Shown here: positions 3,110 through 41,144 of the stretch, one piece after another | Layout of the letters: each line of letters opens with the position of its first letter | How positions within the stretch are numbered: position 1 is the first letter of the stretch | Source: an uncultured Gammaproteobacteria bacterium | GTDB lineage: Bacteria > Patescibacteriota > Patescibacteriia > UBA1558 > S5-K13 | Direction: 5' to 3' | DNA length: 47,721 bases | NCBI GenBank assembly: GCA_964634645.1 | Contig: CAZWKI010000002.1 | Location: forward strand, 266 to 47,986 | Position numbers and translations under genes: made by a program | The notes under the pieces: model-generated | Databases searched by the model: none | Seen by the model: the letters and a program-made list of their open reading frames with translations, nothing else | Told to the model about the DNA's origin: nothing

Positions 3110-3396
3110 AACGGCAACCAGTTTTGCTAGCACGTAATTATACGACGACAAAAACGAGAGCAAGACGTAGATTCCTTTTTCCTCCACCCACATCCTTCTC
3201 GTCCCGCTAAGCGGGATCGCCCCGACAATTCTTCGTTCCGTGAAGCGGAACTTCGAATGGCGCGCCACTCCTTTGAAACTTTAAGTGAAAAAGGAAGCTA
3301 TTCGACTTTTCGAAGAAGAAGAAAGAATGGTCCACCGAAGATTTCTTGTTTATCGTAACTTTAGTGGAGATAGAAGCGAAGGTGGACACGCAACAA

Positions 3397-33310: not shown

Positions 33311-33378
33311 TGGGTCCAACTGTCGTAGTTAAACGGAGATCCCGCATAAGTGAAACGCTTGCGGGAAGCCAAGGACCC
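33311..33378 (-). pseudogene. tRNA-Val 5' fragment with a GC hairpin (33340-33366) inserted after position 12
   Basis: 33367-33378 equals tRNA positions 1-12, and the same upstream spacer is present. CAGTTGG follows after the insert. Confidence 0.7.
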
Positions 33379-33387
33379 AAAATATTT

Positions 33388-33648
33388 TTAATTTATTATT
33401 TTCAATTTACAATTTATCAAATTTTCTTTTTCAATTCTTGATAATTTTTTAATTTGCCTCTCCCTTTTCATTGCATCTATTTTATTTTCAAATTTTTCAT
33501 AATATACAATCTTAACGGGCTTTCTATATTTTGTATATTTTGCACCGCCTCCGGTATTGTGTTTATTTTCTCTTGATTTCAAATCTTTACAATATCCAGT
33601 ATATAATGTTTTGTCACTACAAAGGGCTATATATACATAAAATATCAT
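33388..33648 (-). CDS. GIY-YIG nuclease-domain protein (single domain, 86 aa)
   Basis: FYVYIALCSDKTLYTGYCKDLKSRENKHN ... RERQIKK. Confidence 0.85.
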   Translation of the reverse strand: MIFYVYIALCSDKTLYTGYCKDLKSRENKHNTGGGAKYTKYRKPVKIVYYEKFENKIDAMKRERQIKKLSRIEKENLINCKLKIIN

Positions 33649-34109: not shown

Positions 34110-34352
34110 CTAAATTAATCTTTTTTTCATAAACGCTATTCCTGAGCCACTCTTCAAATATTTTTCAAATCCTACGGCTTTTAATTTATCTTCAAACACA
34201 GCATAAAAAATTATTTTTAGTGGTTTTATATTGCGCGTTGAACCTACCTTACCAGAATTATGATAGAATATTCTTTTTTTCAAATTCGTAGTAAAACCCT
34301 TATAAATTCTATTGTTATATTTTTTACTTCTTAAAATATAGACGTAATACAT
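34110..34352 (-). CDS. GIY-YIG nuclease-domain protein (single domain, about 80 aa)
   Basis: MYYVYILRSKKYNNRIYKGFTTNLKKRIFYHN. Confidence 0.85.
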   Translation of the reverse strand: MYYVYILRSKKYNNRIYKGFTTNLKKRIFYHNSGKVGSTRNIKPLKIIFYAVFEDKLKAVGFEKYLKSGSGIAFMKKRLI

Positions 34353-34518
34353 AAAAATAAAAATCACTTATAAAATAAGCGACCCTTTGATTAATTTTAA
34401 ACTCCTGTGATTCACTACTTGGGTACACCATCCGAAACTCAAAATTAATATGTATATATAAAATCAGATTGATGTCCTTCGCTAAAGCTGCGGACATCAT
34501 CTTCACTAAAGTGAAGGA

Positions 34519-34669: not shown

Positions 34670-34720
34670 TAACCAACTGCCTGTCCGCCATAGCGTAGCG
34701 AAGGCGGAAGCCACAAGCCC
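34670..34720 (-). pseudogene. tRNA-Ala 5' fragment (positions 1-22) with a 29-nt hairpin insert (34680-34708) after position 12
   Basis: AGCCACAAGCCC and TAACCAACTG match the real gene on either side of CCTGTCCGCCATAGCGTAGCGAAGGCGGA. Confidence 0.75.
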
Positions 34721-37416: not shown

Positions 37417-38005
37417 GATATACTTGACTATATGATTATATTATGTTTTAATATATTTACATTATAAATCAATTTTTTATTTATTTTAAGCCAAAAAATA
37501 AGAACTATTAGCACTATTGACCCCGTTGATAAAAAGTGCTATAATTATTATATATAGAAAAATATTGCAAATTATCCTTCTTGTCGAAAAACAAAAACAA
37601 AAACATAAAAAGTTTATTTCCTGCCAAAAAGGTGAGAATAGACAAAATATCGAAAAAGAAAGACAATTTGCATGGAGAATGCTTCTCGCCTAAGAATGAA
37701 ATTGGTAATTATTAAGCTAAAAAGCTTGATAATAGGCCTAAAGTTGGGGAGTGCAACTCCCTAGAAAAAAACCTTCTGGGGAGTTTTTGTTTTGATACTA
37801 TAATTACCAAACATCAAAAAGTCTAAAAATAAAGCGCTTTTAAATAAAAACGTAAATATACAGACATGAAAAAACAACACTTCGGGGCGAGATTATAAAC
37901 TTTAAAATCTAAATATTAGTTTATTTAAGCCAAAATATAACAAAATTTTCATGACCACCATGACTCTTCGCTAAATTTGACAATAACTATTCAAAAATGA
38001 TCAAT

Positions 38006-38021
38006 TGTTCCACGTGGAACA
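38006..38021. promoter_or_regulatory. 16-bp perfect palindrome TGTTCCACGTGGAACA (operator-like)
   Basis: An identical copy lies at 38635-38650. Confidence 0.6.
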
Positions 38022-38095
38022 TTTTAAAAAATTCAAACAAAGCGAATAAAACATTTTAAAAAATAAAAGGATCTATTATATTACAAATAAATCCT

Positions 38096-38527: not shown

Positions 38528-38634
38528 TTAATCCTCCTAAATATTTTTATTTGACACATATTAACATATTGATAACGATAAAACAATACATTAAAAACCT
38601 TAATTGTTCCACCTGCCTCGCCAATGCCACAAAA

Positions 38635-38650
38635 TGTTCCACGTGGAACA
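38635..38650. promoter_or_regulatory. 16-bp palindrome TGTTCCACGTGGAACA in the alaE upstream region
   Basis: Half-sites AATTGTTCCAC (38602-38612) and GTGGAACAATT (38706-38716) are also present. Confidence 0.6.
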
Positions 38651-38759
38651 TTTCTATTATATAAATAAAACTATATAAAATTTCTGTGGCTTAGTCATTA
38701 CGGGCGTGGAACAATTGTATTTAATTTAAGTAAAAAATATTTGGGCTATTTTTAAAAAT

Positions 38760-39011
38760 TTATTTTTTACCTTTTATTCTTTTTGAAATCTTTGCAATTG
38801 TACGAGAACTAATATTTATTTGTTTTTGTATTTTGATATAAGAAATATTTTGTTTTAATAATTTTGAAACATAAAATCGATTTGCAAATTCGTTTATTTC
38901 ATTTTGTGAAAAAAATTTATCAAAAAATTGCCTCAGGTCTTTTTTATTTTTAAATTTTAGAAAATTTTTATAAAAATTATTTATTTCTATTTTTTTATTA
39001 TTCTTTTGCAT
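38760..39011 (-). CDS. TrpR/YerC-like small helix-turn-helix regulator
   Basis: EINEFANRFYVSKLL..NISYIKIQKQINISSRTIAKISK. Confidence 0.65.
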   Translation of the reverse strand: MQKNNKKIEINNFYKNFLKFKNKKDLRQFFDKFFSQNEINEFANRFYVSKLLKQNISYIKIQKQINISSRTIAKISKRIKGKK

Positions 39012-40630: not shown

Positions 40631-40705
40631 TGGTACCCTCGCTAGGAATTGAACCCAGATTTTATCCTTAGGACGGATCTGTTCTATCCGTTGAACTACG
40701 AGGGC
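40631..40705 (-). tRNA. tRNA-Arg(CCU)
   Basis: Reverse complement folds as a cloverleaf with loop GTCCTAA and TTCAATT. G1:U72 wobble. Confidence 0.8.
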
Positions 40706-40740
40706 ATATTGGTTTCAAATTTAAAAGGTCAAATGTAAAG

Positions 40741-40809
40741 TGTTCTATAAACAAACTTCTCGTCCCGCCGAAATTTTAATGAAGGCGGGATCCGTTGAAC
40801 TACGAGGGC
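40741..40809 (-). pseudogene. tRNA-Arg(CCU) 5' fragment (positions 1-27) with a 42-nt insert in the D-loop containing hairpin 40763-40790
   Basis: TCCGTTGAACTACGAGGGC and TGTTCTAT match the real gene on either side of the insert. Confidence 0.75.
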
Positions 40810-40914
40810 AATGTTAATTTCAAGTATTGAATTTTGAAATTTGAATTAATTGTACAATAAACTAATTATAAATTTAAATTCATCATTCGAAATTCATATT
40901 TCAAAATTGTTTAA

Positions 40915-40991
<77 letters not shown>

Positions 40992-41068
40992 ATAATGAAT
41001 TATCTAATTTAAAATTTTGAATTTTGAATTAAGTTCATCATTCGAAATTCATATTTCAAAATTATTTA

Positions 41069-41144
41069 ATGGTGGACTTGAGGGGACTCGAACCCCTGAC
41101 CCCCTGCATGCCATGCAGATGCGCTACCAACTGCGCCACAAGCC
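41069..41144 (-). tRNA. tRNA-Ala(GGC)
   Basis: G3:U70 pair, loop ATGGCAT, TTCGAGT, CCA. Confidence 0.85.

Follow-up and report, generated by a model that had tools for sequence, protein, structure and literature searches.

The tRNA-Arg(CCU) gene described here lies in a window of 47,721 nucleotides, the whole stretch of DNA that was analysed, which is part of a metagenome-assembled genome (G000) of 949 kb with a GC content of ~29%, present in 55 contigs and 92% complete. The genome contains bacterial genes for NusA and type IV pilus ATPases and a pilin-type N-methyl signal, a content that fits an ultra-small organism of the CPR/Patescibacteria type. The genes for tRNA-Ala(GGC) and tRNA-Ala(CGC) are found upstream of the tRNA-Arg(CCU) gene (ARAGORN, Rfam), which is preceded by a shortened and interrupted copy of its own 5' end. 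The locus comprises the following features:

40631..40705, minus strand: intact tRNA-Arg(CCU) gene with encoded CCA, the working copy (ARAGORN; Rfam RF00005, 54.4 bits).
40706..40740, minus strand: AT-rich spacer of 35 nt from stub to gene, without significant similarity to tRNA or trailer.
40741..40748, minus strand: resumed tRNA piece, ATAGAACA in the tRNA sense and TGTTCTAT on the plus strand, tRNA index 19-26 (from the sequence).
40749..40762, plus strand: hairpin flank of 14 nt, part of the inserted module; AAACAAACTTCTCG on the plus strand, CGAGAAGTTTGTTT in the tRNA sense.
40763..40790, plus strand: GC-rich hairpin TCCCGCC-N14-GGCGGGA, in which N14 is GAAATTTTAATGAA (hairpin scan).
40790..40810, minus strand: 5' stub of tRNA-Arg(CCU), positions 1-20 plus one upstream base, identical at 21/21 positions to 40686-40706.
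40849..40878, minus strand: promoter-like site TTTAAA-18-TACAAT, ~40 nt upstream of the stub (consensus scan).

Read in the sense of the tRNA, the stub GCCCTCGTAGTTCAACGGAT (positions 1-20) is followed by the hairpin (T)CCCGCC TTCATTAAAATTTC GGCGGGA, its flank CGAGAAGTTTGTTT, the resumed piece ATAGAACA, the 35-nt spacer and the complete gene. The sequence-only reading of this DNA had described a truncated 5' self-copy with a discrete hairpin insert in the D-loop, in an architecture that recurs, and this description is supported, the insert being flanked by tRNA sequence on both sides. Its figures required only minor adjustment. The copy of tRNA positions 1-19 that it had placed at 40791-40809 is exact and forms part of a longer repeat, 40790-40810 (20 nt plus one). 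The piece at 40741-40748 is indeed resumed tRNA, with the AT at index 19-20 duplicated, and corresponds to index 19-26 and not 20-27. The separation of the two pieces, previously given as exactly 42 nt, is within the observed range of 41, 42 or 43 nt, which depends on the assignment of the duplicated A/T, and homology to tRNA-Arg(CCU) stops at G27 (last match 26), one position before the proposed end. It had also been considered that matches as short as these might be expected by chance; both are better than that, with 21/21 identical nucleotides in the repeat (blastn-short E=4.9e-05 for the match of the stub to the tRNA) and an expectation of 0.0038 occurrences of ATAGAACA in an interval of 85 nt. 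The stub is a non-functional remnant, which is interrupted in the D-loop at 19/20, ends at about position 26 and lacks tRNA positions 27-75, and it is the complete copy 35 nt downstream that works.

The two 21-nt direct repeats are separated by 85 nt, and the repeat unit is 104 nt long. Across the whole 949-kb genome there are only 54 exact direct repeats with a length of 20 nt or more and both copies within 300 nt; about 12 of the 54 involve tRNA genes, which account for ~0.3% of the DNA. Since the upstream flanks of stub and gene share no homology (p=0.3), the repeat starts at the 5' end of the tRNA, and a simple slippage (tandem) duplication was rejected for this locus on the same grounds. 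The hairpin was also considered as a terminator, a reading rejected because no T-run follows it and the terminator scan lists none here. A group I intron (~200 nt or more, anticodon loop) does not agree with an insert of this length in the D-loop, and Rfam gives only tRNA, with no other family even at a permissive threshold. No ORF is present between the stub and the intact gene. The flank sequence CTTCTCGTCCCGC, whose recurrence in the window had been pointed out earlier, is found again at 3195-3207, where it adjoins a degenerate tRNA-Pro 3' piece, and the CGAGAAGT tail of the flank is common to the genomes G007 (ACGAGAAGTGC) and G004 (CGGGAAGTAC).

The comparison of fragments with their parent genes, suggested along with the original observation, was carried out with blastn-short for all 36 tRNAs against the genome, and the Arg(CCU) stub turned out to be one case among many. 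At least 12 tRNAs have self-fragments, which are broken at positions 12/13, 19-22, 35-38, 39-41 or 58-61 and each abut GC-rich hairpins. The GC-rich sequence at all junctions starts with CCCGCC or CCTGCC and ends with GGCGGG or GGCAGG. Stubs of 12 nt from the 5' end, followed by related hairpin modules, are present for Val(TAC), Val(GAC), Ala(TGC), Thr(GGT) and a Thr(TGT)-type remnant, and 3' pieces beginning in the T-loop for Pro(TGG), Leu(TAG) and Ala(TGC). The parallels previously drawn with Val and Ala are therefore real: the Val(TAC) stub of 12 nt lies at 33367-33378 and its hairpin at 33340-33366, and the Ala(TGC) stub (34709-34720) is followed by a 29-nt hairpin insert and then by CAGTTGGTTA. 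On contig C14, Arg(GCG) is followed by two 3' pieces of the Arg(CCU) type, which comprise positions 41-75 with 97% identity and are each preceded by a hairpin module. Read on the plus strand, which is antisense to the tRNA, the Arg(CCU) hairpin has the loop GAAATTTTAATGAA, which matches the family loop GAAGCnnTAGnGAAG. The T-loop modules at Pro(TGG) and Leu(TAG) have a similar loop, GAAGCTTTAGTGAA, which places the module antisense in 5' stubs but sense in 3' pieces; in either arrangement, the terminal tRNA piece is faced by the same side of the hairpin.

Four tRNA genes of this genome, Ile(GAT), Ile(TAT), Arg(TCT) and Thr(GGT), are each nested between the two halves of a second self-copy. The breakpoints of these outer copies are exactly or nearly complementary, at 36/37 in both Ile(GAT) and Ile(TAT), 35/41 in Arg(TCT) and 21/22 in Thr(GGT). 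Stem changes that compensate each other link the outer halves in two cases, Ile(GAT) and Thr(GGT), and each pair must therefore once have been one gene. Members of the module family sit in or at the edges of tRNA gene loops, and they are seen only where an intact copy of the same tRNA is present beside or inside the broken one. Several breakpoints are located in stems and not in loops (12/13 and 39-41), which counts against an explanation by entry into loops.

Pattern searches for the Arg junction covered 86 genomes of the order, 401 genomes of the class and a metagenome collection. In the class-wide search, a 14-base pattern was no commoner than its reversed control, and matches were counted only when accompanied by an acceptor-stem match and an adjacent Arg gene. 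The 15-mer GGCGGRACGAGAAGT produced only chance matches against GTDB genomes, all in high-GC genomes, and a metagenome pattern requiring the junction together with the CGAGAAGT tail produced no match. A looser junction pattern had 16 matches in the metagenomes, comprising 11 true tRNA-Arg scars and five chance matches in high-GC coding DNA. The junction ..AACGGA/CCCGC.. (..AAYGGA/CCCGC.., with a slash at the breakpoint) was found in dead tRNA-Arg copies of 16 other genomes and metagenome contigs, including eight genomes (G003, G039, G109 with two loci, G166, G198, G330, G382 and G007) and eight distinct types of metagenome contigs. The GGA/CCCGC junction spans four Arg isoacceptors (CCT, TCT, GCG and CCG), and the copy in G007 lies upstream of Arg(GCG) with the same ACGAGAAGT tail. 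An intact Arg gene is located 15-436 nt downstream of the junction, except in G330 and L196, where the contig ends. Whether such inserts are bounded precisely by tRNA sequence outside the present genome had been asked from the outset, and they are so bounded (..GGA / module / TAGAAC..) in eight genomes and contigs, namely G039, G109, G166, L185, L186, L191, L195 and L196. In G166, the sequence GAAACCAATAT, with which the spacer of the present locus ends on its 3' side, also directly precedes the gene.

In the contig L185, the outer tRNA-Arg(CCU) is complete, and each of its three loops carries an insert. The D-loop carries a module of 46 nt, the anticodon loop an intact replacement tRNA with inverted-repeat flanks, and the T-loop a 20-nt palindrome, CCTGCCTGCCGGCAGGCAGG. 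In G382, the insert at 19/20 consists of an inverted repeat, an intact tRNA and another inverted repeat. The relationship between a stub and its neighbouring gene ranges from 19/19 identity to clearly different lineages (e.g. L192), and some replacements must therefore have come from elsewhere. Searches of the literature revealed no account of nested tRNAs or of tRNA stubs tagged with hairpins from CPR bacteria. The same layout at the same nucleotide in many related bacteria thus marks an apparently undescribed process that breaks tRNA genes but in every case spares one intact copy, for which the junction fixed at 19/20 across Arg isoacceptors and lineages and the three-loop exemplar L185 are new.

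Repeats can be mis-joined in an assembly, and the 55-contig genome might owe the broken copy to such an artefact. However, the same architecture is present in independent assemblies: the G166 type occurs letter for letter in three separate metagenome contigs, L186 equals L193, and the site in G003 (see below) is orthologous with the same 104-nt period. Since identical architectures come from independent metagenome assemblies, these structures are, as a class, no assembly artefacts, and we consider this origin highly improbable for the present locus.

A different reading is that the interrupted copies are expressed and the hairpin is removed from the RNA, which would make them a new type of bacterial tRNA intron or split tRNA. 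The inserts occupy loop positions typical of archaeal tRNA introns, their ends are complementary like the helices of split tRNAs, and a complete outer tRNA is kept in L185. At the Arg(CCU) locus, however, an intron is contradicted by the lack of positions 27-75, and many outer copies elsewhere have disabling changes or truncations. ARAGORN in intron mode revealed no extra tRNAs. The splicing enzymes EndA (PF01974) and RtcB (PF01139) were not found in the 92%-complete genome, and every interrupted copy with readable surroundings has an uninterrupted partner; for these two reasons, the stub is regarded as a dead scar and not as an intron, and we give the splicing reading almost no credence.

The gene order Ala(GGC)-[Ala(CGC)]-Arg(CCU) is conserved within the family, in which empty, filled and decayed sites are found. 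In empty sites, the Ala-Arg spacer has a length of 4 nt (G005 and G008), 11 nt (G011) or 63 nt without a stub (G001). G004, whose tRNA-Arg(CCU) gene is 100% identical to that of G000 (75/75), retains this stub and hairpin in decayed form (TTCATTATTAAAATTATTGCGGGCGGGAAGT) and has, in addition, an older stub whose sequence is of another type. G003, a member of another genus, has a filled site with the sequence GCCCTCATAGTTTAATGGA/CCCGCGCC...GGCGGGG..GGATATAAAA.., followed by a spacer and the gene, and the distance from junction to gene is exactly 85 nt, as in G000. The upstream 100 nt of G000 and G003 are 76% identical (shuffle maximum 65%) and the tRNA-Arg genes 79% identical, and the identity of the 85-nt middle is 61%, just above the best of 300 shuffles (0.59). 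By these sequence comparisons, the filled loci of G000 and G003 are orthologous across two genera.

In both G000 and G003, the stub is identical to its own local gene (19/19), and all three differences between the two genes in the stub stretch are mirrored in the stubs. The resumed piece likewise follows the local gene at position 22, reading TAGAAC in G000 and TA(T)AAAA in G003. Because the site is orthologous and yet each stub matches its own gene at 19/19 positions, stub and gene evolve in concert; a neutral relic would not mirror the differences between lineages. The series of empty, filled and decayed sites among relatives and this evidence of homogenisation between stub and gene are also new.

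The main rival explanation regards the locus as a passive relic, in which a one-off partial duplication (~26 nt) was later joined by an unrelated palindrome and maintained by ordinary gene conversion, with no selfish targeting. Plain gene conversion could indeed suffice for the identity of stub and gene, without any mobility. The absence of an enzyme gene at the locus agrees with this explanation, as does the Val(TAC) stub, which shares ~40 nt of duplicated upstream flank (84% identity, family D17). The Arg site must moreover be old, because it is orthologous in G000 and G003. On the other hand, the Arg repeat begins at tRNA position 1 and its flank is not duplicated, and the junction nucleotide recurs in four Arg isoacceptors, in many families and in metagenomes. 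The outer halves of nested copies are exactly complementary (36/37 and 21/22), the Arg(CCT)-type 3' pieces on C14 adjoin Arg(GCG), and outer and inner copies are sometimes of clearly different lineages, as in L192. On balance, we consider a passive relic unlikely.

The concerted evolution of stub and gene could also reflect selection, if stub and hairpin formed a cis-acting RNA or DNA element with a role in pre-tRNA processing or transcription. The motif TTCAAAAT, which is common 5' of the tRNAs of this genome, is present before the stub and absent before the tRNA-Arg(CCU) gene, and the consensus scan detected no promoter-like site within the 35-nt spacer. The promoter-like site at 40849..40878 probably now drives stub, hairpin and gene as a single precursor. 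A selected leader would be in line with this only promoter-like site being upstream of the stub, with the perfect stub-gene covariation in G000 and G003, and with a predicted precursor fold that pairs the stub with the 3' acceptor strand. However, this fold is no better than those of shuffled sequences (z=-1.17), the pairing would constrain only 7/19 nt, and the hairpin stems are conserved in sequence and not by compensatory change. Furthermore, the site is empty in the close relatives G005, G008, G011 and G001 and decayed in G004 beside an identical tRNA, and a selected leader is accordingly judged quite improbable.

Conventional integrative elements provide another possible source of partial tRNA repeats. 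tRNA genes are well known as targets of integration, and the elements inserted there are flanked by direct repeats of parts of the tRNA; elements are known that carry their own copy of the 3' end and restore the gene with it. The locus shares with them a partial direct repeat of the tRNA beside an intact gene and the preservation of tRNA function, and it might thus be the scar left by the later deletion of a phage or island for which the tRNA gene had served as attB; the T-loop 3' fragments of Pro, Leu and Ala elsewhere in the genome resemble attR remnants. In contrast to these elements, the 5' part of the tRNA and not its 3' part is repeated here, merely 85 nt separate the repeats within a 104-nt unit that has no integrase, and the hairpin lies inside one repeat copy and is followed by resumed tRNA, an arrangement that simple att recombination does not yield. 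A kb-sized integrase-bearing element between the repeats was not seen in 14 family members, and Phage_integrase matches the genome only once, in a broken frame on a different contig, C15. An attachment-site origin is therefore very improbable.

The genome has four small single-domain GIY-YIG frames (68-113 aa, ~85 typical), all four of which adjoin hairpin-bearing tRNA scars:

33388-33648 and 34110-34367, this window: GIY-YIG frames by the Val and Ala scars.
Contig C32: GIY-YIG frame by the Leu(TAG) scar.
Contig C14: GIY-YIG frame by the Ser(GCT) scar.

The best solved relatives of these proteins are the UPF0213 proteins BH0048 and EF2693 (1zg2, 1ywl). GIY-YIG enzymes are DNA hydrolases that are unable to paste DNA, a point against the mobility proposed below. 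In G039, the intact gene is separated by a GIY-YIG gene from a dead Arg(TCT) copy that carries hairpins at 19/20 and 35/36. At the Arg(CCU) locus itself there is no gene for a nuclease, transposase or integrase, and most other Arg D-loop scars likewise have none within ~1.5 kb. The Arg(CCU) locus is thus a nuclease-free example of a hairpin-tagged tRNA scar.

Considering the evidence as a whole, we favour the explanation (with a probability of about 0.6) that the locus contains a dead tRNA-Arg(CCU) copy with a site-specific insert of a small palindromic module, the propagation of which would be triggered by a nuclease. The module may represent a tiny non-autonomous mobile element that inserts into tRNA genes at loop or hinge positions while their DNA is single-stranded, at replication or upon DNA uptake. 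Survival would be limited to insertions that come with an intact tRNA copy, which would account for the self-in-self nesting and the stub-plus-gene pairs. The module, or the whole 104-nt unit, could spread by break and repair in a homing-like gene conversion, for which the ~85-residue single-domain GIY-YIG nucleases, acting in trans, are a plausible trigger. The stub might stay identical to the gene because the unit is lost precisely via the 21-nt repeats and then re-invades or is restored by gene conversion. Such a cycle of gain, loss and regain would fit the patchy distribution of filled, empty and decayed sites, the conserved 85-nt geometry and the concerted evolution of stub and gene. The transcribed 5' leader of the tRNA probably includes stub and hairpin, which RNase P would then remove. 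Two points qualify the proposal: the intact gene of a filled allele would still carry any target site, which counts against homing, and, since the broken copy lacks its outer 3' part here, the structure may be a one-sided partial duplication.

A more far-reaching form of the proposal, which we put forward as a tentative possibility of limited likelihood, is that the cycle is active. The 104-nt unit, made up of the hairpin module, the tRNA piece of 8 nt, the spacer and the 5' repeat, would then be a living non-autonomous selfish element of a new class, which sits at 19/20 of tRNA-Arg genes, is lost via the 21-nt repeats and is regained by nuclease-triggered conversion, so that stub and gene would remain identical over evolutionary time. 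Its drivers would be Ssn-like single-stranded DNA nucleases encoded at other tRNA loci, and CPR-type bacteria would host a family of hairpin mini-elements that target tRNA gene loops in single-stranded DNA and survive only with a replacement tRNA.

The Ssn family and its NTS/SRM hairpin repeats were described by Chenal et al. 2025, Nat Commun (PMC11893778). Ssn enzymes are single-domain GIY-YIG nucleases of ~94 aa that cut single-stranded DNA a few nt 5' of the GC-rich hairpin repeat CGTCATTCCCGCGMAVGCGGGAATCYRG (PMC11893778). The present genome similarly combines small single-domain GIY-YIG proteins (about 85-94 aa in the two systems) with dispersed GC-rich hairpin repeats. The hairpin by the nuclease gene on C14 (TCCCGCGAAGCGGGA) comes close to the NTS core TTCCCGCG-MAV-GCGGGAA, the CGTC 5' flank of NTS is found here in CTCGTCCCGCC, and the module of the Arg locus, CTCGTCCCGCC...GGCGGGATC, resembles the NTS hairpin repeat. 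In contrast, the hairpin loop has 14 nt here and 3-8 nt in NTS, a handful of copies is present instead of hundreds, the nearest solved relatives of the proteins are UPF0213 (1zg2, 1ywl), and an ssn-like gene is absent at the Arg(CCU) locus. The published SRM sequence HGTCWYN(0-2)YYVSBRHN(0-5)WNVSBRGN(0-2)RNCYNB has 0 matches on both strands of the genome (shuffles 0-1), and tRNA genes are never mentioned in the paper (PMC11893778). Thus, Ssn/NTS is the closest known system in view of the likeness of the hairpins, but membership is not established, because the SRM sequence is not matched and tRNA is absent from that work. A relaxed CGTCCCGC...GCGGGA motif occurs at five loci of the genome, four of which are within 270 nt of tRNA genes.

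SegB belongs to the free-standing GIY-YIG homing endonucleases of T4-like phages; its gene lies in a tRNA gene cluster and spreads when the naive allele is cut and flanking tRNA sequence is co-converted (PMC2330249). The lodging of a GIY-YIG nuclease gene among tRNA genes is common to both systems, whereas broken tRNA copies and hairpin modules have not been described for SegB (PMC2330249). The host here is a cellular CPR-type genome and not a phage. Seg enzymes have DNA-binding domains in addition to the nuclease domain, in contrast to the proteins found here, which are single nuclease domains of ~85 aa. A Seg-type homing cassette was rejected for the Arg(CCU) locus, as there is no ORF between stub and gene and the tRNA-linked GIY-YIG proteins are single-domain.

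REP/REPIN sequences (RAYT, Y1 HUH) and palindromes derived from IS200/IS605 are thought to move as single-stranded hairpins. Like the modules, they are short GC-rich palindromes with no coding capacity and no target-site duplication; unlike them, the modules are present at low copy number inside tRNA gene copies and not in extragenic arrays. The genome contains one RAYT-like Y1_Tnp gene, at C5:19693-20049 (E=9e-10). Membership of the modules in a REP/REPIN-RAYT system was rejected, since this gene is flanked by a different palindrome, CACCCGWCGGGTG, and not by CCCGCC/CCTGCC modules. Yeast mitochondrial GC clusters and Rickettsia palindromic elements are GC-rich hairpin mini-elements that spread in AT-rich organelle or reduced genomes, sometimes into genes. 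Neither is known to be linked with the loops of tRNAs or with a replacement copy nearby.

Among short genes, those for tRNAs are the most conserved in any genome, and this lineage seems to break them repeatedly at fixed nucleotides, leaving a hairpin as a mark and always a working copy in place. The stubs and nested copies confuse tRNA finders and predictors of att sites. If correct, the favoured reading would explain how ultra-small genomes tolerate selfish DNA in essential single-copy genes, and tRNA genes as a natural target would add a second biological role and new sequence specificities to Ssn/NTS-like single-stranded DNA nucleases. A further observation from other genomes concerns the palindrome GTTCCACGTGGAAC, which is uninterrupted in G009 and contains a 20-nt GC palindrome in its tip in G006, and which supports the entry of mini-elements into hairpin loops.

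At window positions 3180-3260, a degenerate 3' piece of tRNA-Pro (CCTCCACCCA...CCCCGACAA) is split by a short hairpin, TCCCGCTAAGCGGGA, whose left context, CTTCTCG, is the same as that at the hairpin of the Arg stub, the dead 5' copy of tRNA-Arg(CCU). The interrupted piece is followed by TTCTTCGTTCCGTGAAGCGGAACTTCGAATGGCGC, a sequence which in the related genome G004 (L014) lies immediately behind tRNA-Ala(GGC). The neighbouring tRNA-Ala(GGC) and tRNA-Ala(CGC) genes share a trailer of approximately 40 nt (40874-40914 and 41029-41069), including an exact part of 30 nt (TTCATCATTCGAAATTCATATTTCAAAATT on the plus strand), and the equivalent stretch ahead of the Arg stub shows 76% conservation in the genome G003.

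Elsewhere in the source genome, contig C14 (4810-4949, L026) carries two tandem units, each pairing a hairpin module with a 3' piece of the tRNA-Arg(CCU) type that spans positions 41-75 at 97% identity. These units are located behind tRNA-Arg(GCG), a different isoacceptor, and a homologous module with a 3' piece occupies the same place in the genome G011 (L024).

The palindrome TTGTTCCACGTGGAACAA is repeated in the window (38003-38022 and 38632-38651) close to a Trp-repressor-like ORF (38760-39011), and is also present near tRNA loci in several families (L014, L019, L020, L043, and L049). In G006 (L020), a GC palindrome of 19-20 nt, CTGTCTACCGACAGGCAGG, interrupts two of its copies close to the tip; the copies in G009 (L019) are intact. 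On contig C5 of the source genome (19560-20260, L055), a RAYT/IS200-like Y1 transposase gene (Pfam Y1_Tnp, E = 9e-10) has CACCCGWCGGGTG palindromes on either side, and together they represent a REP-like system distinct from the tRNA-linked hairpins.

Whole-genome searches of the source genome using ARAGORN (with and without intron mode) and Rfam found no genes for tRNA-Met (initiator, elongator, or lysidine-Ile type), Cys, Lys(UUU), or Gln(UUG). Since this assembly comprises 55 contigs with 92% completeness, these genes are probably located in unassembled repeats. Perfect or near-perfect inverted repeats surround an intact tRNA gene in the genome G039 (L029, 1930-2045; TCCGCCTAATTCG / CGAATTAGGCGGA) and the intact tRNA-Thr(GGT) gene of the source genome (C6, 2549-2666; CCTGCCCGCCAGTCGCC / GGCGATTGGCAGGCGGG). 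Thus, each site amounts to a long DNA hairpin whose loop contains a working tRNA.
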